Part shown: one piece after another, positions 26,441 through 59,907 of the stretch | Layout: every line of letters starts with the position of its first letter | Numbering within the stretch: the first letter of the stretch is position 1 | Origin: Candidatus Peregrinibacteria bacterium Gr01-1014_25 | GTDB lineage: Bacteria > Patescibacteriota > Gracilibacteria > Peribacterales > Peribacteraceae | Length of the DNA: 64,000 nt | Assembly (NCBI GenBank): GCA_007376205.1 | Contig: VMFU01000001.1 | Location: forward strand, 94,661-158,660 | Direction: 5' to 3' | Notes under the pieces: generated by a model | Seen by the model: only the letters and a program-made list of their open reading frames with translations | What the model was told of the DNA's origin: nothing | Databases searched by the model: none | Position numbers and translations under genes: made by a program

Positions 26441-26530
26441 TGGCGGAGAGGGAGGGATTCGAACCCTCGAGACCCTTTCAGGTCTACACGCTTTCCAAGC
26501 GTGCGCACTAGGCCACTATGCGACCTCTCC
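26441..26530 (-). tRNA. tRNA-Ser (anticodon GGA), CCA encoded
   Basis: The reverse complement folds as a cloverleaf. Acceptor stem is GGAGAGG/CCTCTCC. The anticodon stem CACGC/GCGTG carries loop TTGGAAA. There is a long variable arm (GACC-tgaaag-GGTC), a T-arm GAGGG-TTCGAAT-CCCTC, and a 3' GCCA. Confidence 0.9.
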
Positions 26531-36134: not shown

Positions 36135-38378
36135 TCAAATCAGCGGTTCCTCGAACTTCTCCTCGATGCTCGCGATCTCCCCTTCCTTTGGCGGCGCGGA
36201 GGCGGCTTCGTCCCATTTCTTCAGCATGTCTTCCACTTCCTGTTTCGGCGTGCAATATTTGCGACGTGAGGCGGCGATGATCTGATCCGAGTGATCCCAC
36301 TCGGGCCGCGGCGCGTCGAGTGTCCGACCGGAGAAGGCTTCCCGCAGCTCGCCGTTCACCGACATCTTGCAGTAGAGTTCACGTACGCCCAGGTTGATGA
36401 TGTCGCGCTCCTTGAAGACGGGGTTGTACTCCTCGGCGAGAATCTTGGCGTCCTCGGCGCCGACGCGGAAGCTGATCATGGAACCGACGTTGCCGAACAC
36501 GGTCTTGCGAACGACATCGTTGAGCTGGCCCATGTACTGGTGGGCGATGGTCAGGTTCAGGCGGTACTTGCGCGCTTCGGAGAGGATCTCGGCGAACGTG
36601 TCGGTCGCGAAGTTCTGGAACTCATCGACGTACAGGTAGAAGTCCGTGCGCTGGTCCTCGGGCGTGTCGGCGCGGCTCATCGCGGCCTGGTAGAGCTTCG
36701 TGATGAACATCGAGCCGATGAGCGACGAGTTCTCCTCGCCGAGCAGACCTTTGCTCACTTTCATGAGAAGAATTTTCTTCTGGTCCATGATCTCGCGGAT
36801 GGAGAATTTCGTCACCGGCTGCCCGATCATGTTACGGATCATGTTCGTGGCAACGAACTGGCCGACTTTGTTCAGCAACGGCGTGATCGCTTCGGCGTCG
36901 AATTTCTCCGACCATGCGGCGAACTCGCTGACCCAGAAGCTCTTCACGACGCTGTCCTGAATGCGCGCGACGATCTTCTGGCGGTAGTTCTTGTCGGTCA
37001 GCATCTTCAGGATCGAGAGCACCGTCGTGTTCGGACTGTCGAGGAGCGCGAGCGTCGTGTAGCGCAACACGTGCTCCAAGCGGTACGTCCAGTTGTCGCC
37101 GAACAACTTCTTGAAAATCTGCAGGAAGCCGATCGTCACCTGCATCTTGTAGGCGTCGTCGACCTTCTCGAGCGGGTTGAAGGCGATGGGGAAATCCGTA
37201 TCCGCCGGATCGAGAAGCACGACGTCGTTGATGCGGTGCTCGGGAATGTACCGCAGAATGGCGTCAATCAGATCGCCGTGCGGGTCGAGAACGGCGATGC
37301 CCTCGCCATTGCGCAAATCGTCATTGATGAGGAGCTCAAGGAGCTTGCTTTTGCCCGATCCGGACTTTCCCACGGCGTAGAGGTGCCGACGACGGTCGGC
37401 GCGACGGATGCCGAACGGCACGAAATTGTTGTGGTAATTCGTCACGCCGAAACCGCTCACGTCCTTCTCGCCTATCTTCGGAAGATCCTGTGGCGGATCC
37501 GATTTGCGCGCGAGAACGTGGACGATGTGCGGGACGTAATCGGCGTTCGGGAAGTGGTAGAGCGTCGCCACTTCCTTCGCGCTCAATATGAACGTCTTCG
37601 TATGCCTGCGGGACCGGTACTGCTCGATGAAGCGGGCGTCAACGGCGGCGGCGTGGCCGTGGAAGCTATTGATGTCGCTGTCATTGAACTGCGAGAAGCT
37701 ACCAATGATCGCCTCGAGTTTGCGGACGGCCGTCGCTGTGTCGCTGGAAATGTACGCGCAGCGGATGCTCACCTTGTATGGCTTGATGCCGAGTTTTTCG
37801 TTCGCGCGTTCGTGCCGGACGGCGGCGATGCTCTTGCGTCCGCCCTCGCGCAAGCGGTCGCGGATGCTGAAGAAATGCCGCATATTGGCCAGACGCATTC
37901 TCCACTTGCGCACGAAGTGGTAGCCGCCCGTATCGTCCTGCGGCTCCGCTATGATCTGTACCCACACCTGGTCACCCGCGCTGATCTTCGAAATGACTGC
38001 GAACAGTCGCGACAGGCTGTCCTCCTCAAACAGATCGTACGTCTTGATGGGGTAAATATCGGAATGATGCAACGTGATGACGGTCCCGGCGACCCCATGA
38101 CTTGTTCCTTCGACGCCGGCGGTATAGTCGGCCGTCTCTTTGATCTCGGCATCAGGGAACGCCGTGTAAATCAAACCTTCCACCGTCTCGAAGAGGCGCT
38201 CCTCCACAACGACGAAGAAATAGGTGTACTGATTGGCTCCGTAAAATTCGAGAGAAATCGGTGTCCCTGTGAATGTATTACGCATGTTCACCAGCAATTC
38301 CTGGAACTTCGATTCCAGTTTTACTCGCCCCTCAACGCCTTGGGGGATAACCACATGAAGGTAGCGCAGAGCAGCCAT
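36135..38378 (-). CDS. Type IV secretion coupling-protein-like ATPase (TraD/TraG/VirD4 C-terminal NTPase type) with an uncharacterised N-terminal domain and no TM anchor
   Basis: 747 aa. Walker A is AVGKSGSGKSKL. The Walker B/TraG-D_C-like region is FYLYVDEFQNF..ARKYRLNLTIAHQYMGQL. The N-terminal 330 aa or so are hydrophilic. Confidence 0.7.
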   Translation of the reverse strand: MAALRYLHVVIPQGVEGRVKLESKFQELLVNMRNTFTGTPISLEFYGANQYTYFFVVVEERLFETVEGLIYTAFPDAEIKETADYTAGVEGTSHGVAGTVITLHHSDIYPIKTYDLFEEDSLSRLFAVISKISAGDQVWVQIIAEPQDDTGGYHFVRKWRMRLANMRHFFSIRDRLREGGRKSIAAVRHERANEKLGIKPYKVSIRCAYISSDTATAVRKLEAIIGSFSQFNDSDINSFHGHAAAVDARFIEQYRSRRHTKTFILSAKEVATLYHFPNADYVPHIVHVLARKSDPPQDLPKIGEKDVSGFGVTNYHNNFVPFGIRRADRRRHLYAVGKSGSGKSKLLELLINDDLRNGEGIAVLDPHGDLIDAILRYIPEHRINDVVLLDPADTDFPIAFNPLEKVDDAYKMQVTIGFLQIFKKLFGDNWTYRLEHVLRYTTLALLDSPNTTVLSILKMLTDKNYRQKIVARIQDSVVKSFWVSEFAAWSEKFDAEAITPLLNKVGQFVATNMIRNMIGQPVTKFSIREIMDQKKILLMKVSKGLLGEENSSLIGSMFITKLYQAAMSRADTPEDQRTDFYLYVDEFQNFATDTFAEILSEARKYRLNLTIAHQYMGQLNDVVRKTVFGNVGSMISFRVGAEDAKILAEEYNPVFKERDIINLGVRELYCKMSVNGELREAFSGRTLDAPRPEWDHSDQIIAASRRKYCTPKQEVEDMLKKWDEAASAPPKEGEIASIEEKFEEPLI

Positions 38379-38392
38379 AAACTTGGTGTCTT

Positions 38393-38420
38393 ACATTAGC
38401 ACATTTTTGGCTATTTTCAA
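38393..38420 (-). promoter_or_regulatory. Candidate extended -10 promoter in the 60-nt gap upstream of the ATPase gene
   Basis: On the coding strand: TTGAAA-N16 (ending TGC)-TAATGT, 14 nt before the ATG. It shares the 8-mer GTGCTAAT with the array promoter candidate at 45220-45227. Confidence 0.35.
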
Positions 38421-38438: not shown

Positions 38439-40130
38439 TTACTCTCCAAACTCCTGCTCGTACACATCCCTATCCCAAAGAATAAAGGGGCTCTCCGGAG
38501 GATATGTCGTCCGGATCGGCCTGCCCGTCTTCGCGCATGCGCGATCGTAGAGATGAATGCCGCCGAGCTTTTTGGCGCGTTCTTCCATACGCTCGTCGTA
38601 TGTCATGCGGGGCAAGGGAACATTGAACTGCCGGTAGCGCTTGAGCTCCTGCGACGTGATCTTGAAGGGGCGGCCGGACAGGGCGCTCTGTACGATCATG
38701 GAGTCGTCGGTCTGCGGCAAGCTGTCGGGGAGCGCGGAAGAATCGATCGCTTCCGTCATGCTGACCGGCTCTTCGTGCCATGTCAGTCCCGCTTCCAATG
38801 CCTGGTTTTTGGTGAGAGGAAAATGGCGCTGCGCTTGCGAGCGGTTGTACGGATGCGGCGTGCGTGACAACGGGAAAAATTCGCCCCATTCCCCTGCCTG
38901 CCGCATCTGCTCGATAAGCTTCGGCATGAGCGCTTCGTACTCTTCTTTCGTATACTGCTTGTTCAAGATGCAGTATTTCTTGTGGTTCAGGCTCACGCAG
39001 CCGAAACACTGTTCGCACGCGTCGCAGTGCCAGCAGTACAGAAGATCGCTGCTGCCGGCACGACACTGATAGCAGAACGCGAGCCGCTGGATGTCGATGC
39101 CGCACGTCGCGCACTCGTAGATGAGCTCCGCGCGGCGTCCGAACAGCGAGTAATCGCGGCAGTCTTTGATGCCTTCGTGGAGATTGAAGCAATGCCGCAG
39201 ATTCTCCCCATGCTGAATGAAAAAGCTGTCATGGACGTCTTTCGCCTCGAGGATGAAATTCCCAGAAACGTCTTCCGTCTGCCGCAGGATTGCATGGGGA
39301 CGTGGGTGGCGCAGGCAAAGTTCCCTCCAGCGTTGATCCATCTCCGCGCGCTGGCGACGGGAACGCGCATCAAAGCCGTGGAGGAAAGCTTCGTACTCGT
39401 CACGTGTTTTCTGTTCGTTGAAGATGCAGTACTCGCGCCGCCGCAGATTCACGCAGCCGAAGCAGTGTTTGCAGGAACGGCACAGGGAAAGGAAGGTGCT
39501 TTCCTGGCAGTCCTCGCAATACTCCGAACTCTGCAACGCATAGCAGCGCGTGCATGCCGTGCAGTCGTAGCACAGCTCCGATTGCCGCGTGTGCGTGCAT
39601 TCGACGCAGTCGCGCGATCCCCAGGCGTTCTCGCAGTACATGCAATCTTCGGCGAGCGACGTATTGAAGACCATGTAGCAGTTCTTGTTGTCCGAAAGAT
39701 TGTTGCAGTACTCGCAATTCTCGTTGCGCGTCGCGGTGAGCGCGGGCTGGGGTACTTCCCGCTGCAACGCGAAAAATTGCGAGAAGAACGATTGGAACAG
39801 ATCAACGTCCCGTCCGTACCGCAACGGGTCCCATCCGTCGCCAGACCATTCTTCGATGGGAACCACGGGGAATGGAACGGAAGTGGGGTACACGGAGAAC
39901 ATCGGCTGCCCCGTCGATGACGACGGCCGCGAATAGACGTAAATCTCCGTGCGAAACGCCAGCCGCCGCTGCAAGCGGCACTCTGGACATAGCGTTGGCG
40001 GAGGAACGTCGCATCGCACCCCGCCAAATATTGGGCCGATCTTCTCCAAGAATGCGAGATCGTCATCCGTAACCTCAAAAGTCGCTTGGCACTGTGCACA
40101 GGTTCGCCGACCGACAATGGGCTGTTGCAT
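38439..40130 (-). CDS. Cysteine-rich repeat protein, paralog A (unknown family)
   Basis: 563 aa with 37 Cys by my count. Domain order is: N-terminal CxxC..CPxC module, two Cys-rich modules each ending CFGCV.L....YC..N.Q.T..EYEA, then a C-terminal module with its Cys residues lost. Confidence 0.8.
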   Translation of the reverse strand: MQQPIVGRRTCAQCQATFEVTDDDLAFLEKIGPIFGGVRCDVPPPTLCPECRLQRRLAFRTEIYVYSRPSSSTGQPMFSVYPTSVPFPVVPIEEWSGDGWDPLRYGRDVDLFQSFFSQFFALQREVPQPALTATRNENCEYCNNLSDNKNCYMVFNTSLAEDCMYCENAWGSRDCVECTHTRQSELCYDCTACTRCYALQSSEYCEDCQESTFLSLCRSCKHCFGCVNLRRREYCIFNEQKTRDEYEAFLHGFDARSRRQRAEMDQRWRELCLRHPRPHAILRQTEDVSGNFILEAKDVHDSFFIQHGENLRHCFNLHEGIKDCRDYSLFGRRAELIYECATCGIDIQRLAFCYQCRAGSSDLLYCWHCDACEQCFGCVSLNHKKYCILNKQYTKEEYEALMPKLIEQMRQAGEWGEFFPLSRTPHPYNRSQAQRHFPLTKNQALEAGLTWHEEPVSMTEAIDSSALPDSLPQTDDSMIVQSALSGRPFKITSQELKRYRQFNVPLPRMTYDERMEERAKKLGGIHLYDRACAKTGRPIRTTYPPESPFILWDRDVYEQEFGE

Positions 40131-40141
40131 GGCCTTCTAGT

Positions 40142-41815
40142 CTACGACCCAAACTCTTTCTCGTACACATCCCGATCCCAAATGATGTACGGGCTGTCCG
40201 GCGGATACGTCGTCAGAATGGATTGTCCCGTCTTGGCGCATGCGCGCTGGTAGAGATGGATACCGCCAAGCTTCCGTATTCTCTCCTCCATTCGCTCGTC
40301 GTACGTCATGCGGGGCAGGGGAACGTTGAACTGCCGGTAGCGGCGGATTTCTTCGGACGTGATCTTGAACGGCCGTCCGGAGAGTGCGCTGCGAACGATG
40401 ATGGGATCGTCCTGAGCCGGTAATCCGTCCGGCAGCGACGAGACTTCGACGGCCTGTTTTGCTTCGGGGATCTGCTGGTCGTACCAATGCAATTTCTGCG
40501 TTGCGGCTTCCGACTTCGTCAGGGGGAAGTACCGTTGGGCAAGCGAGTAGTTGTACGGACCGAACGCCTCGGTCATTGGGAAAAATTCGCCCCACTCCCC
40601 TCTGAAACGCATATGCGCGATGATTGTCGGCACCAACGCCTCGTATTCCTCCTTCGTATACTGCTTGTTGAACACGCAATGGTGCTGCTTCTTTAAGCCG
40701 ACGCAGCCGAAACAATCGCGGCAACCGACGCAACCCTGGCAATACAACATGTTGGACGTGTTGGTGTGCACTTCGTAGCAGCACAGGAGACGTTGCGCGT
40801 TGATCCCGCAACTGACGGCTTCGTAGACCAATTCCGCCTTGTTACCCCAAACCGAATAATCGCGGCAATCCTTCGATCCGTGGACTCCGAAACAATATGT
40901 AAGATCCTCGTCGTTGGAACAAAAAAACGATCCTTGGACGTTGCGGGAATGCAGCACGATATTCCCGGCACACTGTTCCACTTGGCGTAAAATGACATTG
41001 GGGCGCGGGTGTTGCTGGAAGAAAACCTGGGTCTTCCGCCGCATATCTTCCCGCCAGGCATGTGATGATGCGGGAAGGCCACGAAGGAACGCATCGTATT
41101 CCGCCTTGGTCTTCTGTTCGTTGAAAACGCAATACTCCGCATGACGAAGATTCACGCAGCCGAAGCAGTGTTTGCAGGAACGGCAATTCAAGAGAAAATG
41201 GCTATCGCTGCAGTGTTCGCATTGTTGGGAGCTCTGCAGGTTGTAGCAGTTCTCGCAGAGCGTGCAGTCGCAGCACAATTGCGACGAGACGATCATCGTG
41301 CAGTCCAAGGTATTTACGGAGCTGTTCATCATTTCGCAATACATGCCGTCTTCGCCTCCCGTGGTATTGAAAACCATGTAGCAGTTTTTGAGCTCACCGG
41401 CATTGACGCAATAATCGCTGTTTTCCAGATTGGAAACCGAACGCGCGATATGCGGGACCTGCGATCGAAGCTCGTGAAATTGCTCGTGAAAGCTTTTCCC
41501 GAAATCAAAAGTTTGCCCCGCGGATAGCCCGTTCCAGGCATCACCCCACCATTCTTCATTACTGATAACAGGAAACCCCACGTCCTCTGGCCACGAGGAA
41601 AATATCTGTTTCCCTGACAAGGACGACGTTCGCGAAAAAACATGGATTTGATTCCGAAACGCCAGCCGCCGCTGCAGCCGGCACTCCGGACACAGCGTCG
41701 GCGCGGGGATCGCCTCTTTCTTCCCGTTGAACACGGGGGAAACTTTGTCGAGGAACGCGAGGTCGTCGTCGGTGATCTCGAATCCTGCCTGACATTGCCT
41801 GCATGACTGTTGCAT
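40142..41815 (-). CDS. Cysteine-rich repeat protein, paralog B (unknown family)
   Basis: 557 aa, colinear with A. The C-terminal ~85 aa are near-identical to A (GRPFKITS.E..RYRQFNVPLPRMTYDERMEER..KLGGIHLY.RACAKTG). There is an 11-nt gap to A. Confidence 0.8.
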   Translation of the reverse strand: MQQSCRQCQAGFEITDDDLAFLDKVSPVFNGKKEAIPAPTLCPECRLQRRLAFRNQIHVFSRTSSLSGKQIFSSWPEDVGFPVISNEEWWGDAWNGLSAGQTFDFGKSFHEQFHELRSQVPHIARSVSNLENSDYCVNAGELKNCYMVFNTTGGEDGMYCEMMNSSVNTLDCTMIVSSQLCCDCTLCENCYNLQSSQQCEHCSDSHFLLNCRSCKHCFGCVNLRHAEYCVFNEQKTKAEYDAFLRGLPASSHAWREDMRRKTQVFFQQHPRPNVILRQVEQCAGNIVLHSRNVQGSFFCSNDEDLTYCFGVHGSKDCRDYSVWGNKAELVYEAVSCGINAQRLLCCYEVHTNTSNMLYCQGCVGCRDCFGCVGLKKQHHCVFNKQYTKEEYEALVPTIIAHMRFRGEWGEFFPMTEAFGPYNYSLAQRYFPLTKSEAATQKLHWYDQQIPEAKQAVEVSSLPDGLPAQDDPIIVRSALSGRPFKITSEEIRRYRQFNVPLPRMTYDERMEERIRKLGGIHLYQRACAKTGQSILTTYPPDSPYIIWDRDVYEKEFGS

Positions 41816-41822
41816 AAGGAGG

Positions 41823-43496
41823 TTAGTATACCTCCTTCAGATAGCATTCCTCGCAATAGACGATCTCTGGCCTCTCCGGGCCGTACGTCGTCTGGATCGC
41901 CTTCCCGCACTTCGCACACGCGCGCGGCCAGAGGTGGCGGGGATTGCGGAGAGCGAGGCGATCACGATGACGCTGATCCGGGCAGCGGCGCGGGATTGGG
42001 AGCCGCATGCGACGATAGAATTGCAATTCTTGCGGGATGATTTTGTAGGGTTTGCCGGTCACTTCGCAACGGAGGATGCGATCGCAGATATCATCCTCCG
42101 CGCCGTCGATCGATTCGGGGATCGCCTGCGCCGGACCCATGTACGCGTCTTCCTTCGCCTGCCCGTCATACCACTTCCATTGGCGGCGGAGCACATCATC
42201 CCTCTCCATCGGAAAATACTCTTGAGCGAGCGTTTCGTTGTATCCCATGGTGGAGAGGCACGGATCGGGATACGCGCCCCATTCTCCGGTTTTCCGCATG
42301 TGCTCGATGATCTTCGGCACGAGAACTTCGTACTCCTCTTTGGAATACTGCGCATTCAAGATACAATGCTGCTTGCGCTTCATGCCGCTGCAGCCGAACA
42401 CATCCGTGCAGTGATGACATTCGCGGCTGTAGTAGACATCACTGCCGTACCACGACAGAAAAGTCCCCATGCAGCGCTCGCCGCCGACGGTGGAATTGAC
42501 GTTGTAACAGAATCGCACTCCCGCCGGAGCCGTGTAATTGGCATCCTGGCTCATGAAGCCCTTCGGGGTGTTGGAAATATGGGCGCAATCCTCACATCCC
42601 GTGCAATCGAATGCGTCGTGGCAATTCTTTGAATTGAAGATCATATCGCCGGTACATCCTTCGCTGCCGAAAACGTACGACGCGCGATGCGGCAGGGTTT
42701 TTTTGAGATCCTGGAACTTCGCGCGCATGAGGCGAACGTGTTCCTGCGTCAGCGGCGTGAGTTGTTTCATGCGCTCCTCGTATTCTTCTTTGCCGAGACG
42801 CTCATTGAGGAAGCAATATTCCTGGCCCTTCAGGCCGAAGCAGAGGCAGCAATTCTTGCAGTTCTGGCAATCTTCGACCATGAGGCAGTTGCTGCAATTG
42901 TACGAATAGAGAGCGTAGAAACATTCGTAGCACCCCTGGCAGGCAACGCTTTCGTATGACCATTGGCATGAGTAGAGCGACAGCGCGTCGACGACATTGC
43001 TGCAGCTGATGACAAAGCGGCCGTACAGGGAATCCTCGATGTCCGTCGCGCCGGCGATGAGATAGGTATTGCGGGCGTTGAGCGAGTGATTCGTGTAGTA
43101 GCTGTTTTCGGCGTTCGTCGTGAAGAGCGACATATGCGGGACGACGTTGTTCAGATCCGCAAATTGCTCGGCGAACGTTCTGGAAAAATCGAAAGGCCTG
43201 CCGTACGAACGCTCATCCCACTGATCGCTCCACCACTCATCCTGATCATAGACGGTATACGGCTTATCCGGAGCGTACATCGACACGATTTGCTTGCCCG
43301 TCAGATCGGACTTGCGATGGTACAGAGTGAGATCGTTGCGGAAGAGCAGCCGCCGTTGCGTCCGGCAATCCGGGCACAGCGTCGGCGGCAGGATGATTTC
43401 TTTTTTTCCTTGGAACACCGGCGAAACATTCTCCAGAAATGTACGATCGCCGGAGGTGACCTCGAATGCGGCCGAGCATTGTTTGCAGGTGGGCAT
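41823..43496 (-). CDS. Cysteine-rich repeat protein, paralog C (unknown family)
   Basis: Start set at MPTCKQCSAAFEV (43496), which overlaps the stop of D by 1 nt (TGATG). 557 aa. The C-terminal module retains CAKCGK..VYCEECY. Confidence 0.8.
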   Translation of the reverse strand: MPTCKQCSAAFEVTSGDRTFLENVSPVFQGKKEIILPPTLCPDCRTQRRLLFRNDLTLYHRKSDLTGKQIVSMYAPDKPYTVYDQDEWWSDQWDERSYGRPFDFSRTFAEQFADLNNVVPHMSLFTTNAENSYYTNHSLNARNTYLIAGATDIEDSLYGRFVISCSNVVDALSLYSCQWSYESVACQGCYECFYALYSYNCSNCLMVEDCQNCKNCCLCFGLKGQEYCFLNERLGKEEYEERMKQLTPLTQEHVRLMRAKFQDLKKTLPHRASYVFGSEGCTGDMIFNSKNCHDAFDCTGCEDCAHISNTPKGFMSQDANYTAPAGVRFCYNVNSTVGGERCMGTFLSWYGSDVYYSRECHHCTDVFGCSGMKRKQHCILNAQYSKEEYEVLVPKIIEHMRKTGEWGAYPDPCLSTMGYNETLAQEYFPMERDDVLRRQWKWYDGQAKEDAYMGPAQAIPESIDGAEDDICDRILRCEVTGKPYKIIPQELQFYRRMRLPIPRRCPDQRHRDRLALRNPRHLWPRACAKCGKAIQTTYGPERPEIVYCEECYLKEVY

Positions 43497-45154
43497 CAGT
43501 AGACAGTGGCAAGGTAACACTCTTCGCAGTAGACGATTTCGGGGGCGTTGGGTGCAAACGTCGTGCGGATGCCTTTCTGACACTTGCCGCATGTGCGCTC
43601 ATAGAGCACGCGCTTGTGCCTTTTCTTCAGGCGAAGCTCGTGACGCTCATCGGGTGAAATGCGAGGGAGTGGGATGTTCAACCGTTGATAGAATTCCCAC
43701 TCTTGCGGGATGATTTTGTACGGCTTTCCGGATGCGGCTGATGTCAGAATTTTCGCTGTCACATCATCTGATGCATCACGAATACTGTCCGGCAGCTCTA
43801 TCGCGGGCCCCATATATTTCTTCGTTTGTTCTTCCTCTTCGTCATGCCATTGCCATCCTTTCGCAAGCGTCTCTTTCTTCGTGAGGGGTATCTGCTCCTG
43901 CGCAAGAGATTCGTTATAAGCGTATATGCTCTTGTCAACGGGAAAGAATTCACCCCATTCACCGGTCCGTTTCATGTGTTCGATGATGCGCGGTACAAGC
44001 TTTTCGTATTCCTCCTTTATGCACTGCTTATTCAGAATGCAATACGTCTGTTTCTTGAGGGATACACATCCGAAGCAATTTTTCGTAGAGAAGCACTGAT
44101 CGCAGTAGGTTAGATCGCTGCAATTGGTCCAGCAGAGATTGCAAAAACGCAGCTGAAATAGGTCGTAGCCACATGCCTGGCATTCGTACATCTTCTCGGT
44201 ATTCCCTCCCCAATAGCTGAAATCCACACTGTCCTTCGCATCGTAGACGCACATGCAGTAGCGGATATCCTCGCTTCTATCGCACTCAAAGCAGGTGAAG
44301 GCGTTTTTACTGTCCTGCAAGTAATCACCGACACAGTTTTCGGCATTCGTTCCGGTAAATTCTTTCACGATGATTTTTCTGGAGAAATCATCGAATGTCT
44401 GTCTGCTCTTTTCCATTTGGATGAAACTACCCGTATCCACGCTCTGGAGGAACGCTTTGTACTCCCCCTCGGTCTTTTGCTCATTGAATACCATGTACTG
44501 CTTCTGCACTTGGTTGAAGCAGAAGAAACAATCGCTGCAACCAATGCAGTTGCGCAGAAAGAACGAATCGCTGCAATTGGTGCACTCTTGGCTGTAGCGC
44601 ACGTTGTAGCAATGACGACACCCGACACAGTCGTAACAGAGTTCGCAGGCATCGATGTTGGTGTTGTCTAAGCAATCCTTCGATTGATTCACCCAGGAAC
44701 CGTAGTAACAATCTTCGCAATGATTGGTGGAAAATACGAGATAGCAGTTTTTATTCATGCTTGCGCAATTGCAGTAATCGCTATTGACCATAGGTTTCTG
44801 TTGTTGAAGAGCGAGGCGGGGCACGACATCGCGTAACGCGAAGAACTGTTCAAAGAACGGTTTGTTGAAATCGAATTCCCTGCCATACGAGAGCGGGTCC
44901 CAGTCATCGCTCCACCACGCATCAATGTCATATACGGGAAACGGTTTATCAATGGAAAACGACGAAACAATTTGCTTGCTGGTCAGGTTGCATTTTCGAT
45001 GATAGAGAAAACGTTCGTTTCTGTAGCTCAGCCTCCGTTGCATCCGGCAGAGATAGCAGTGCGTCGGCGCCGGTACATGCATATCATCGTAGAACGCGAG
45101 ATCCTCGGGGGTTACAGCAAAGCCGGCGGCGCACTGGACACACGTTTTCTGCAT
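43496..45154 (-). CDS. Cysteine-rich repeat protein, paralog D (unknown family)
   Basis: Start set at MQKTCVQCAAGF (45154) by analogy with paralogs A-C; the ORF could extend to 45214. There are 42 Cys by my count. The C-terminal module retains CGKCQK..VYCEECY. Confidence 0.75.
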   Translation of the reverse strand: MQKTCVQCAAGFAVTPEDLAFYDDMHVPAPTHCYLCRMQRRLSYRNERFLYHRKCNLTSKQIVSSFSIDKPFPVYDIDAWWSDDWDPLSYGREFDFNKPFFEQFFALRDVVPRLALQQQKPMVNSDYCNCASMNKNCYLVFSTNHCEDCYYGSWVNQSKDCLDNTNIDACELCYDCVGCRHCYNVRYSQECTNCSDSFFLRNCIGCSDCFFCFNQVQKQYMVFNEQKTEGEYKAFLQSVDTGSFIQMEKSRQTFDDFSRKIIVKEFTGTNAENCVGDYLQDSKNAFTCFECDRSEDIRYCMCVYDAKDSVDFSYWGGNTEKMYECQACGYDLFQLRFCNLCWTNCSDLTYCDQCFSTKNCFGCVSLKKQTYCILNKQCIKEEYEKLVPRIIEHMKRTGEWGEFFPVDKSIYAYNESLAQEQIPLTKKETLAKGWQWHDEEEEQTKKYMGPAIELPDSIRDASDDVTAKILTSAASGKPYKIIPQEWEFYQRLNIPLPRISPDERHELRLKKRHKRVLYERTCGKCQKGIRTTFAPNAPEIVYCEECYLATVY

Positions 45155-45217
45155 TACGGAGGGGGGATCGGTGACGCCCCCATGCTGCACGGATGAGCAC
45201 ATTCTGTCCAACATTGA

Positions 45218-45245
45218 AAATTAGCACTAGTATTTTTTATTTCTA
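45218..45245 (-). promoter_or_regulatory. Candidate promoter of the Cys-rich array
   Basis: On the coding strand: TAGAAA-N16 (ending TGC)-TAATTT. The predicted TSS near 45211 would lie downstream of the 45214 ATG, which favours the 45154 start. Confidence 0.35.
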
Positions 45246-45261
45246 TGAAGCCAAAAATTGA

Positions 45262-45270: not shown

Positions 45271-45294
45271 TGTGTAGAAAAAGTTCGACAACAG

Positions 45295-46131
45295 ATGTAT
45301 TCTCTTGCCGAAAGCATGATCTCCGAACTCCTCAAGCTCGGCCTCACGGATGAAGAAGCCCGTGTGTATCTCGCATGCCTCGAGATCAACGGCGGTCCCG
45401 TGTCACTCATCGCGAAGAAGGCGAACACCCATCGCGTGAGCTGCTATCACACCCTCGAGAATTTGCTGCGGAAAAATCTCTTGAGCCAGTACAACCGCAA
45501 CGGCGTGAAATGTTTCGCGCCGGAGCCGCCCGAGCAGTTGCTCAAGCTCACGGAGGAAAAGGTGCATCTCGCCCGCGGCCTGCTCCCACAGCTGCAGTCC
45601 ATCGCTAGCACGCTGGCATTCAAACCGAAGATCCGCTTCTACGAAGGGCGCGACGGCGTGGAACGTGTGTACGGCGAATCGCTCGAGCTGCGGCCGGAGA
45701 TCGACGCGAAGAAACAGCGGGCGGACCACGGCATCGTGCGCGGCGCGGCGCCCGCCGAAATCCTGGGATACACGAACCTCAAGACCGTCACGACGTTCTT
45801 CCCTGAATTTTTCCGCCAATACACGCACGAACGTTTGTGCCGCGGCATCAAGACGCGCTACCTGTCACCGACGACCGTCGAGAGCGTGCACGCCATCGAC
45901 CCTTTCCTGCCGTCGCGGTACGACGCCAACCTCATCGAAATCCTCCTCGTGAACAAGGAACAATTCCCGTTCGACAACGAAGTGCTGATCTTCGGCAGCA
46001 AAGTCTGCGTCGTGTCGCTCAATCCCGACGAATTGCTCGGCCTCGTCGTGGAAAGCGCGACATTCGCACGGACGATGAAGGCGGTGTTCGATTTAGCATG
46101 GCTTGGCGCGACGGCCTTCGTCGCCAAGTGA
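45295..46131 (+). CDS. TrmB-family transcriptional regulator (winged HTH)
   Basis: LLKLGLTDEEARVYLACLEINGGPVSLIAKKANTHRVSCYHTLENLLRKNLL is a typical TrmB N-terminal HTH. 278 aa. Confidence 0.75.
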   Translation: MYSLAESMISELLKLGLTDEEARVYLACLEINGGPVSLIAKKANTHRVSCYHTLENLLRKNLLSQYNRNGVKCFAPEPPEQLLKLTEEKVHLARGLLPQLQSIASTLAFKPKIRFYEGRDGVERVYGESLELRPEIDAKKQRADHGIVRGAAPAEILGYTNLKTVTTFFPEFFRQYTHERLCRGIKTRYLSPTTVESVHAIDPFLPSRYDANLIEILLVNKEQFPFDNEVLIFGSKVCVVSLNPDELLGLVVESATFARTMKAVFDLAWLGATAFVAK

Positions 46132-46656
46132 GTGTTTGCCATTCGCACACCCGCATTCCTCGCTCTTCTTCCCGCAACATCCCCGCTCTTCGGGCAGATC
46201 CAGCTTGAACCTGCCCTCGCGGAAATCGATCGTCGCGCCGCCAATGCGGGCGAGCGTGAGCGGCAAGGCGATGATTGTGAGATCGACGGCGGAATGGGAG
46301 AAAACCAGCGCCTCTGCGGGAATGTCGGCGCGGAATTCCATGCAGAAGCCGCCATGCCCGTCGGCGACGACTTCGAGCGCCTGGGACAGGCGCTGCTCGG
46401 CTTCGGCGATCGCGCGCAGGTGCTCCGCCGCGGGCTGCGTGACGTTGAGCGTCTGACTGCGTGCGGGCCGCGCACGGAGAAGCTCGTTGAGCTCCCCCAC
46501 GAGCATGGCGATGTCCTCGGCGGGGAACCCGTGGCTCGCGCATCCGTCCTCGAGCGTTTCGATGTCGCTATAGTCGCAGGCGAAACAGTGCAATCCGTAC
46601 CGCGCGAGCACCGGCTCCGCCTCGGGCAGAATCGTGATGATTTCCTGCACGCGCAT
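46093..46656 (-). CDS. DUF1858 (redox-disulfide CxxC) / HesB-IscA-like fusion protein
   Basis: Start at MRVQEIITILPEAEPVLARYGLHCFACDYSDIETLEDG (DUF1858-like). It continues with LNVTQPAAEHLRAI..ALEVVADGHGGFCMEF (IscA/HesB-like fold) and a Cys-rich tail CCGKKSEECGC. The last 39 nt overlap the convergent TrmB gene. Confidence 0.55.
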   Translation of the reverse strand: MRVQEIITILPEAEPVLARYGLHCFACDYSDIETLEDGCASHGFPAEDIAMLVGELNELLRARPARSQTLNVTQPAAEHLRAIAEAEQRLSQALEVVADGHGGFCMEFRADIPAEALVFSHSAVDLTIIALPLTLARIGGATIDFREGRFKLDLPEERGCCGKKSEECGCANGKHSLGDEGRRAKPC

Positions 46657-46763
46657 CGCCCCCGTGATCTTCGGTTTCCTTGGCATCCTTGGTTGCCTTG
46701 GTTTCCCCGTCGGCACTTTTCCCATATTCTGATGCTCGCCAGAGATTCCATCACTGTCAATTC

Positions 46764-58439: not shown

Positions 58440-59907
<1,468 letters not shown>

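Follow-up and report, generated by a model that had tools for sequence, protein, structure and literature searches.

The locus examined in this study lies on contig VMFU01000001.1 of Candidatus Peregrinibacteria bacterium Gr01-1014_25, within a stretch of 64,000 nucleotides (positions 94,661 to 158,660 of the forward strand) that was analyzed as a whole and is called the window here. At this locus, four tandem genes for cysteine-rich proteins of about 555 amino acids (paralogues A to D) are bracketed by a divergent gene for a TrmB-like regulator and by a gene for a VirB4/VirD4-class ATPase, and the locus is one instance of a three-part module that is found across a lineage of the candidate phyla radiation (CPR) of bacteria. 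As shown in Table 1, the four co-directional open reading frames (ORFs) on the minus strand were confirmed at the coordinates of the initial annotation, and so was their spacing (11 nt between A and B, 7 nt between B and C, and a 1-nt TGATG overlap between C and D). The products contain 552-563 amino acids and 34-42 cysteines, with 13-18 overlapping CxxC motifs in each; the earlier count of 37 cysteines in A and 42 in D was reproduced. When the four proteins were compared pairwise, they proved to be colinear over their full length, at 33-57% identity and with BLASTP E-values of 1e-106 to 0, far beyond chance, and the alignment contained the motif strings that had been quoted as common to all four. 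Exactly four family copies are present in the window.

Longer ORFs are possible for paralogue C (extending to 43592) and for paralogue D (extending to 45214). For D, comparison among loci makes the start at 45154 the better candidate, because the ATG at 45214 sits in a conserved non-coding box that is ATG-less in other loci; the lengths of homologues (548-560 amino acids) also fit the shorter start. No 19-residue window of A-D exceeded a Kyte-Doolittle value of 1.07 and the N-termini were polar, although no dedicated predictor of signal peptides or transmembrane segments was run. As had been proposed for them, the four proteins appear to be cytoplasmic and to have neither a signal peptide nor a transmembrane segment.

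Table 1. Features of the cysteine-rich array locus (positions in the window; aa, amino acids; rows for D give segments of that protein).
Feature	Coordinates	Strand	Description
VirB4/VirD4-class P-loop ATPase	36135-38378	-	747 aa; 60 nt downstream of A; identified by Pfam, Foldseek and DUF8128
Paralogue A	38439-40130	-	563 aa, 37 Cys; N-terminal Cys4 ribbon and central CxxCxxCxxC coil intact; C-terminal finger cysteines lost
Paralogue B	40142-41815	-	557 aa, 34 Cys; 57% identity to A; same set of putative metal sites as A
Paralogue C	41823-43496	-	557 aa, 36 Cys; N-terminal ribbon, central Cys4 coil and C-terminal CxxC-x17-CxxC finger all intact
Paralogue D	43496-45154	-	552 aa, 42 Cys; first gene after the regulator; closest homologue 68% identical
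D residues 469-552, C-terminal Zn module (predicted)	43499-43750	-	Basic first half; treble-clef finger C522/525/543/546 intact
D residues 263-378, second solenoid (predicted)	44021-44368	-	Homologous to the first; ends in near-invariant FGC...YC.LN.QY motif
D residues 113-227, first tight beta-solenoid (predicted)	44474-44818	-	Period-3 Cys/Ser core lattice, ending in CxxCxxCxxC coil C203/206/209/212
D residues 1-80, N-terminal Zn module (predicted)	44915-45154	-	CxxC-x24-CxxC ribbon, Arg-rich helix, decayed finger
Conserved non-coding box (C/A)TGTTGGACA	45205-45214	-	Array leader; the ATG that would start the longer D ORF falls here and is spurious
Conserved AT-rich TGGCTT...ATAAA box, promoter-like	45233-45253	-	Divergent spacer
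Inverted repeat GTAGAAAAAGTTCGAC (consensus GTAGAA-N4-TTCTAC), candidate operator	45274-45289		5 nt upstream of the TrmB-like start codon
TrmB-like winged-helix regulator	45295-46131	+	278 aa; divergent from the array; PF01978, 32.3 bits versus cut-off 25.6

The extent of the family was determined by several searches. When D was used as the query of a word-indexed search, 7,280 of the 8,000 candidates scored were significant matches; among the matches listed, every source name was "hypothetical protein", and most came from Peribacteria, Peregrinibacteria and Gracilibacteria. When 1.84 billion representatives at 50% identity were searched exhaustively with a profile, 5,561 proteins reached E<=1e-3, of which 2,373 reached E<=1e-30, and the profile matches listed were nearly all full-length, mostly of ~545-565 amino acids. 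Among GTDB species representatives, at least 585 encoding stretches were confirmed. For analysis of gene context the best 80 of these at least 585 loci were used, of which 76 loci, the best matches to D, hold 254 family copies. The closest orthologue of paralogue C (72% identity) was found at locus L004. The family is real, large and nearly restricted to CPR bacteria, mainly Peribacteria, Peregrinibacteria and Gracilibacteria.

The initial annotation could assign the proteins to no recognized family, and sensitive profile, structure and library searches bore this out, in that nothing was matched over the body of the proteins. In searches of Pfam, NCBIfam, PADLOC and the PDB, just the last ~35 residues were recognized, as a sub-threshold CxxC-x17-CxxC finger, and a newer Pfam release present in precomputed annotations likewise holds no model for the family body. 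When 46 family members were scanned against Pfam, sub-threshold matches to the C-terminal finger were obtained and no Hexapep or Fer4 domain was found; a 24-residue helix echo of Med15/KIX in 27 of the 46 was judged meaningless. Sequence and profile searches of the PDB returned LIM-like finger echoes only, and a PHROGs scan gave only a weak match to phrog_15341, a family without an assigned function. Neither GenBank phages (tblastn) nor IMG/VR contigs yielded a relative of the family, and no description was found in literature searches on DUF8128 and on tandem cysteine-rich families of CPR bacteria. About 450 of the 552 residues of D are without a detectable relative in any curated family or solved structure searched.

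Several unusual members were observed. One copy outside the CPR, 45% identical to D, lies on a 3.26-Mb contig of a Bdellovibrionota metagenome-assembled genome (MAG; L019:10001-11644); its neighbors are unrelated (DUF4397, an M20 peptidase and a PMT glycosyltransferase), no TrmB-like or ATPase gene accompanies it, and it may reflect horizontal transfer. A contig labelled Candidatus Micrarchaeota UBA10214 (L003) carries an orthologue of D at 58% identity, as close as true Peribacteria orthologues, and is probably misbinned rather than an archaeal occurrence. In the 731-residue protein P0267 a family member carries at its N-terminus a genuine GNAT acetyltransferase domain (PF00583, E=3e-8), and a weak FeeM/GNAT-like ORF lies ahead of the Bdellovibrionota copy; the two GNAT-like proteins are unrelated in sequence, and GNAT was dropped as a functional lead. 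Finally, the 808-residue P0305 consists of a family member with a C-terminal extension of ~250 amino acids that looks winged-helix-like at its end when inspected by eye and that matches no Pfam domain; it could be a regulator fusion or a read-through of the gene call.

The internal organization of the proteins was examined by comparing slices of the family alignment with hhalign. The N-terminal module (residues 1-80) matched the C-terminal module (466-552) at 99.7% probability (E=2e-24), and central module 1 (112-245) matched central module 2 (262-400) at 99.75% (E=2.5e-26); cross-comparisons between terminal and central modules, which served as negative controls, remained at noise level. The homology within each pair argues that every protein is a nested duplication, in which a predicted zinc module, two tight beta-solenoids and a second zinc module follow one another. 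Along the protein the order is zinc module, tryptophan-rich linker, beta-solenoid, helical insert, beta-solenoid, a conserved helix/GEWGEFFP block, linker and zinc module. A model of D was obtained with AlphaFold2 from a 46-sequence alignment (predicted local distance difference test (pLDDT) 84, predicted template modelling score (pTM) 0.86) and was weak only at residues 121-180. When this model was searched with Foldseek against the PDB and BFVD, nothing was found at E<=1e-3; the sub-threshold echoes were left-handed beta-helices (E>=0.066, TM-score <=0.17) and zinc ribbons.

Conservation and charge are unevenly distributed over this architecture. Column entropy was lowest (1.6-1.8 bits) in the tryptophan-rich linker, the 379-425 block and the C-terminal module, and highest (2.2-2.9 bits) in the solenoids, the insert and the second linker. 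The core carries about -18 when summed over its segments, whereas the terminal modules are basic, with a median of +6 in the first half of the C-terminal module; the median net charge of the whole protein is -6 across the family. Both terminal modules contain an arginine-rich helix, in which R37, R41 and R45, and likewise R504 and R508, show no variation across the 46 aligned sequences.

The roles of the cysteines, which make up 6.9% of residues across the family, were then assessed in 214 full-length copies. In the terminal modules, C5/C8/C33/C36 were conserved at 84-94% and C522/C525/C543/C546 at 93-98%. Terminal cysteines were found to be present or absent together (phi of 0.99-1.00 for C58/C76/C79, 0.99 for C475/C503 and 0.84 for C8/C36), and they seem to behave as all-or-none Cys4 metal sites; all-or-none gain and loss is the behavior of real metal sites. 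Because the terminal cysteines are gained and lost as complete units, each terminal module probably had two Cys4 sites ancestrally, a CxxC-x24-CxxC ribbon and a CxxC-x17-CxxC finger. Decay has been complementary at the two ends: the N-terminal ribbon is kept in 176 of the 214 copies and the C-terminal finger in 196, and all four terminal sites are intact in 17 copies only. Among the terminal sites of the window proteins, A and B keep the N-terminal ribbon only, and C and D keep the C-terminal finger too.

A different pattern was seen in the center of the proteins, where ~25 cysteines occupy every third, buried position of the coil. Of the Cys-Cys spacings up to 40 residues, 80% are multiples of 3, compared with 32.4 +/- 0.3% in shuffled sequences, and the dominant lattice unit is CxxC-x8. 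Within residues 137-221, small or aliphatic residues make up 91% of one register and charged or amide residues 7%, and the other two registers are polar and more variable. Such a period-3 lattice is the hallmark of a tight solenoid that turns every third residue towards its interior. The presence or absence of central cysteines was weakly coupled (phi <= 0.41, the best pairs being at spacing 12), and the residue found in place of an absent cysteine was Ser (5.7-fold enriched and accounting for 36% of such changes) or else Val, Leu, Thr, Ala or Ile; His, Asp and Glu occurred as replacements at 0.39, 0.11 and 0.02 of background, respectively. Because Ser, Val and Leu rather than His or Asp take their place, most central cysteines probably serve core packing. 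Given the weak coupling and this replacement pattern, obligate zinc or Fe-S ligation was rejected for most central positions. The CxxCxxCxxC coil at 203/206/209/212, complete in 137 of the 214 copies and with 81-96% conservation at its individual positions, could be an exception to this rule and form a putative fifth Cys4 site. The multi-zinc or Fe-S scaffold that had been suggested initially is thus retained for the terminal modules and perhaps for one central coil, but not for the bulk of the central cysteines.

These results bear on the possibility that the proteins act autonomously, as structural, metal-buffering or redox proteins (for example as a scaffold polymer or as a thiol or metal reservoir), with the ATPase as a syntenic passenger or a merely co-regulated gene. 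The high cysteine content and the conservation of the complete CxxCxxCxxC coil agree with such a role, and the homologous N- and C-terminal modules could allow head-to-tail assembly. On the other hand, the individual dispensability of the central cysteines and their replacement by Ser, Val and Leu count against the storage of metal by many thiolates.

The gene downstream of A had been described as a type IV coupling protein (T4CP)-like ATPase. The protein contains a Walker A motif (GKSGSGKS) at residue 337 and a Walker B motif (FYLYVDE) at residue 580, and it passes the Pfam cut-offs for T4SS-DNA_transf (PF02534, 36.4 bits versus 20.1), TrwB_AAD_bind (PF10412, 25.8 versus 20.5) and DUF87. Precomputed annotation assigns its N-terminal domain to DUF8128 (PF26449), and residues 1-275 form a soluble alpha/beta region; the structural model (pLDDT 72.5, pTM 0.53) has a helical block at residues 408-518. 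When this model was searched with Foldseek, the best match was TrwK/VirB4 (E=5e-12, ~880 aligned columns, TM-score 0.35, root-mean-square deviation 12-13 Å, identity ~10%), followed by TrwB/VirD4 (E=6e-9, TM-score 0.5-0.6 on the length of TrwB) and then by HerA, Cag-beta and DotL. The curated NCBIfam cut-offs for coupling proteins were not reached (best 55 bits versus 250, for NF045973; others lower), and PADLOC gave weak matches to mad8 (6.6e-12) and HerA. The ATPase belongs to the VirB4/VirD4/HerA clade and fails to show a defining feature of true coupling proteins, the membrane anchor. The T4CP-like designation is therefore upheld as far as the Pfam cut-offs go, but the protein lacks the anchor and is structurally as close to VirB4 as to VirD4. 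Homologues of the ATPase, mostly of 744-751 amino acids, are 69-83% identical and far more conserved than the cysteine-rich proteins.

A 2025 survey of Patescibacteria counted 5,713 VirD4-like genes, of which only 148 lay near virB4, reported that a VirD4-like homologue is non-essential in Ca. Southlakia epibionticum and concluded that exaptation of these ATPases cannot be ruled out (PMC12102498). According to the same source, the coupling-protein gene of conjugative systems often stands beside the gene for the substrate, the relaxase.

The divergent gene upstream of D was confirmed as a TrmB-type regulator by its PF01978 score above the cut-off; PF01978 covers residues 12-79, and in residues 80-278, where a regulator of the TrmB family would have its sugar-binding effector domain, no Pfam or NCBIfam domain was found. 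Three elements are common to the divergent spacers of the closest loci, namely an inverted repeat beside the TrmB start, the TGGCTT...ATAAA box and a CTGTTGGACA box. When GTAGAA-N4-TTCTAC was sought with one mismatch allowed, the 64-kb window contained a single match, which falls precisely within the spacer. Across the 76 loci (1.19 Mb) there were 20 matches, compared with 1-6 in shuffled sequences, and most of them lay 105-170 nt upstream of a family gene, including in loci of Abawacabacteria and Gracilibacteria. There is good bioinformatic evidence from this enrichment that the inverted repeat is a dedicated candidate operator. A pattern scan for sigma-70 promoters and intrinsic terminators performed no better than shuffles and was uninformative, and an Rfam scan found no RNA family within the array locus.

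The composition of the module was followed across the 76 loci. When all of their ORFs were clustered all against all, three recurrent clusters emerged: the family itself, the TrmB-like genes, with 44 members spread over 32 loci, and the ATPase, with 22 members in 21 loci. The remaining clusters were antisense shadow ORFs or non-recurrent neighbors. Linkage frequencies were calculated from only those loci in which the relevant end of the array could be observed. Among arrays of at least two copies, a divergent TrmB-like gene was adjacent in 16/26 and the ATPase lay directly after a copy in 11/22; for singletons the figures were 2/20 and 2/21, respectively. Viewed from the ATPase side, arrays lay directly upstream in four of six orthologues (the window, L077, L081 and L082). 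The association was also seen under rearrangement, the ATPase preceding the array in the Parcubacteria locus L058 and lying mid-array in L075, and a convergent copy following in L067; L067 and L075 are Gracilibacteria loci. Pfam-annotated ATPase contexts contained no type IV secretion system (T4SS) channel or relaxase genes, bar one T4SS_pilin domain (PF18895), which is part of a PKD-repeat protein of 1,749 amino acids encoded ~9 kb upstream in L079. Linkage to TrmB-like and ATPase genes is thus conserved in many genomes, and the divergent spacer contains a conserved operator. The condition under which the initial annotation would have been refuted, with homologues elsewhere occurring as singletons that lack conserved linkage, was therefore not borne out.

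The number of copies varied widely. Arrays held from 1 copy to 11 or more, with 11 found within 21 kb, and one Peribacteria MAG with a genome of ~1 Mb contained at least 19 copies in two loci. In long arrays (L015, L012, L034, L045 and L059), TrmB-like genes were observed to be co-amplified, up to six in L015, and those inside arrays mostly ran divergently to the family gene that follows, a pattern suggestive of repeated cassettes that each combine a regulator with a sub-array. The median identity of adjacent copies was 43% (5th-95th percentile, 33-51%). No adjacent pair exceeded 80%, and recent tandem amplification or gene conversion was rejected. The nearest relative was in the same locus for only 17 of 214 copies. 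Copies first after TrmB showed partial positional orthology (13/30 versus a background of 14%). From these comparisons, the arrays are long-maintained sets of differentiated, anciently diverged isoforms without a fixed subunit order. The initial view of a fixed four-component system was accordingly given up, with copy numbers from 1 to at least 19 per genome, no ATPase-proximal subfamily, and singletons that stand unlinked.

Gene context likewise cuts both ways for an autonomous role of the proteins. Singletons and many arrays occur without the ATPase, the ATPase is also found alone, and at least 19 copies in one ~1 Mb genome would be expected of an abundant structural or buffering protein. 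Against this, the paralogues are anciently diverged and differentially regulated and are not dosage copies, and the linkage to the ATPase outlives the rearrangement of gene order across orders, which is hard to explain by chance synteny. We regard an autonomous role as rather unlikely.

Nucleotide composition sets the array apart from its surroundings. The GC content at third codon positions (GC3) was 0.61-0.73 in the array genes (lowest in D), compared with 0.79-0.82 in the ATPase, TrmB-like and flanking housekeeping genes, and overall GC in the array region (0.49-0.58) was below that of the surroundings. Part of the GC3 contrast may come from amino-acid composition and codon usage and the rest from exchange of array genes between genomes. 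Low GC and GC3, and the long shadow ORFs common in this genome, are also what one might cite for a mobile or selfish element, or for non-functional ORFs annotated by mistake in a high-GC genome. Yet there are thousands of full-length homologues with strongly conserved motifs and constant length, the array is flanked by housekeeping genes and by no integrase, transposase or repeats, the family is absent from the phage records and IMG/VR contigs searched, and no recent duplicates are found among the array copies; moreover, the richness of the proteins in Cys, Asn, Lys, Tyr and Phe itself lowers GC. Recent foreign DNA is highly improbable, and the artefact reading is effectively refuted. The shadow ORFs run antisense across the locus, for example at 36291-38399 (+; 702 amino acids) opposite the ATPase, and 71 of them were counted in 29 loci; their recurrence simply reflects the conservation of the genes on the other strand, and high GC content explains them as artefacts.

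A further possibility is a nucleic-acid-handling or defence complex, in which zinc ribbons and arginine-rich ends bind DNA or RNA, the ATPase translocates it, and the paralogues provide target specificities or acidic decoys that mimic DNA. The invariant arginines in both terminal modules and the +6 charge of the C-terminal module set against a core of about -18 fit this idea, as do the DNA translocases TrwB and HerA among the structural relatives of the ATPase and its weak PADLOC matches; DNA import has been suggested as the role of T4SS-like machinery of Patescibacteria by the authors of the survey cited above (PMC12102498). It is opposed by the contents of the 76 loci, in which no nuclease, methylase, helicase or other nucleic-acid enzyme recurs, by the want of a convincing PADLOC match for any family member, by the overall acidity of the proteins, and by the lack of association with phage or viral contigs. 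Defence islands typically have a patchy distribution, unlike the vertically conserved module with its near-invariant ATPase. Such a complex therefore appears improbable to us.

Taken together, a conserved motor, diverged partners with conserved ends, dedicated regulators with an operator, and restriction to host-dependent CPR bacteria lead us to the tentative proposal, which we consider quite possible, that the paralogues form a repertoire under regulation, whose members are alternative clients (as cargo or as adaptors) of one conserved motor. The divergent TrmB-like regulator would bind the GTAGAA-N4-TTCTAC repeat in the shared spacer, and TrmB-like regulators in general would choose which cassette is expressed. 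The operon would supply cytoplasmic paralogues of ~555 amino acids with terminal Cys4 sites and arginine-rich helices, and with solenoids that are predicted to have a buried Cys/Ser ladder and polar, variable outer faces. The third part would be the highly conserved ATPase, a soluble, hexameric-type member of the VirB4/VirD4 class with its DUF8128 N-terminal domain. The conserved terminal modules and the block at residues 350-425 could form a common handle for this motor, and the variable solenoid surfaces would provide isoform-specific binding. It is from adjacency and sequence that we infer the binding of the regulator, the contact between ATPase and paralogues, and translocation or export.

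A number of observations weigh against the proposal of a client repertoire. The linkage frequencies come from a biased sample, because the 76 loci are the best matches to D, and even there the ATPase does not adjoin about half of the observable arrays and nearly all singletons, and it stands alone in two of six orthologue contexts (L079 and L083). No membrane or channel protein recurs in the 76 loci, and VirB6 is reported to be scarce or absent in the class Gracilibacteria (PMC12102498). The ATPase itself shows no transmembrane anchor, its maximum 19-residue Kyte-Doolittle value being 1.24. When ATPase-proximal copies were examined, the nearest foreign neighbor shared the position in 3/19 cases compared with a background of 9%, and a dedicated ATPase-adjacent adaptor subfamily was rejected on these grounds. 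The GC3 contrast of the array with the ATPase and TrmB-like genes suggests a partly separate history. Contact between ATPase and paralogues is deduced only indirectly, from synteny, and a translocase that unfolds its substrates would have difficulty with rigid solenoids stapled by metal.

In a bolder form of the client-repertoire proposal, which we consider doubtful, the Cys-cored solenoids would be the missing protein substrates of "orphan" VirB4/VirD4-like ATPases, and the soluble DUF8128 motor would recognize their conserved, zinc-capped ends and export a regulated repertoire, specific to each genome, towards the host. As a corollary, coils with four inward cysteines (CxxCxxCxxC) would hold metal on the axis of the solenoid, a kind of site not described before. 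If this were true, the proteins would define a class of episymbiont effectors not seen before, and T4SS-type ATPases would have a further, novel use; should the proteins be exported, this lineage would gain its first candidate repertoire of effectors. CPR bacteria (Patescibacteria) represent a large part of bacterial diversity and have reduced genomes full of unexplained genes, and this family can occupy ~3% of a ~1 Mb genome. The linkage described here gives a subset of orphan VirD4-like ATPases candidate partners, together with a candidate regulator and its operator.

Other features of the window were recorded as well. The longest ORF at 46093-46725 (-) overlaps the 3' end of the TrmB-like gene convergently by ~39 nt, an overlap that depends on the choice of start; by eye, its product has a DUF1858-like beginning and perhaps also a segment resembling HesB/IscA. 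At 58440-59907 (+) lies a complete 16S rRNA gene of bacterial type (1472.6 bits), and no match to 23S rRNA was found at the Rfam gathering threshold in the ~4 kb of the window beyond it; for this reason the rRNA genes seem to be unlinked. Unlinked rRNA genes are common in CPR bacteria. The sole tRNA gene of the window, for tRNA-Ser(GGA), lies at 26441-26530 (-).

When the module was compared with known systems, one group of parallels concerned the ATPase. Like the T4CPs VirD4, TrwB and TraG, it is a P-loop nucleoside triphosphatase (NTPase) with Walker A and B motifs and has the all-alpha TrwB_AAD_bind domain above cut-off, and its gene directly follows, in the same orientation, those of a set of proteins with conserved terminal modules in common. 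Unlike them, it has the soluble DUF8128 in place of the N-terminal transmembrane anchor and remains below the NCBIfam coupling-protein cut-offs; no T4SS channel or relaxase genes recur nearby, and the neighbors are neither relaxases nor toxins, and their transfer is hypothetical. VirB4/TrwK was its best Foldseek match, with a full-length alignment to chains of ~750-940 residues, but the TM-score was ~0.35 at ~10% identity, no VirB3, VirB6 or VirB8 is encoded nearby, and Pfam places the NTPase domain with VirD4/TrwB and DUF87. HerA/FtsK-type defence modules (PADLOC mad8 and HerA partners) resemble the locus in that an ATPase of the same P-loop clade stands beside partners that look non-enzymatic; in this case, however, the partners match no defence model, and arrays of up to 11 copies with a near-invariant, vertically inherited ATPase are atypical.

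For the cysteine-rich proteins, the nearest geometric likeness was the Tenebrio molitor antifreeze protein (TmAFP; PDB 1EZG), a solved tight beta-helix of 12 residues per coil with a Cys/Ser/Ala core. In TmAFP, small or aliphatic residues account for 95% of the inward register (CSCACSCACSC...) and 75% of the Cys-Cys spacings are divisible by 3, compared with 91% and 80% in the family. Homology, however, was undetectable (hhalign probabilities of 0.3% and 1.4%), and TmAFP was not among the Foldseek matches listed. TmAFP is secreted and its cysteine pairs (spacing 6) form disulfides, whereas the family is apparently cytoplasmic and dominated by CxxC (spacings 3 and 9), with ~550 amino acids in two modules plus zinc caps. 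Left-handed beta-helices of hexapeptide transferases and gamma-carbonic anhydrase were rejected as counterparts, given the absence of Hexapep from the 46 members and a best Foldseek match at E=0.066 with TM-scores of at most 0.17. A ferredoxin-type 4Fe-4S site was also rejected: the CxxCxxCxxC coil motif is without CP, 4-19% of copies have Ser, Leu or Met in place of its cysteines, and no Fer4 domain was found.

The ends of the proteins are more familiar. The CxxC-x17-CxxC motif in the last 35 residues of C and D resembles treble-clef fingers (zf_Tbcl_2, PF23477; zf_Tbcl, PF13451; TIGR04272; LIM-like). PF23477 matched in 34 of 46 family members, and the family profile matched LIM domains weakly (E=0.011). 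The fingers of C and D scored 23.3 and 21.8 bits against a cut-off of 27 for PF23477, and 20.1 and 18.2 against 36 for TIGR04272. Such a finger covers only ~6% of the protein, though, and its cysteines are wholly lost in A and B. Extracellular cysteine-rich proteins of Ca. Peribacter riflensis, from the same lineage, have cysteine contents of 5-11% and clustered genes; they are proteins of 580-3,860 amino acids with at least 56 cysteines, mostly with signal peptides and with pappalysin or Myxococcus-repeat annotations (PMC4736985; Anantharaman et al. 2016, Table S4). Identity with them was rejected, since the proteins studied here have ~555 amino acids, 34-42 cysteines, no signal peptide and no such Pfam match, and are absent from Table S4.

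The components at the edges of the module are therefore of known kinds: a TrmB-type helix-turn-helix protein, an NTPase of the VirB4/VirD4 class, and zinc sites of the treble-clef and ribbon types. The Zn-solenoid-solenoid-Zn architecture, the cytoplasmic 12-residue coil with a Cys/Ser core and the three-part module as a whole have no described counterpart. Because the system resembles TmAFP in its geometry, and perhaps a coupling protein with its substrates in its logic, and is a member of neither, it appears to represent a new kind.

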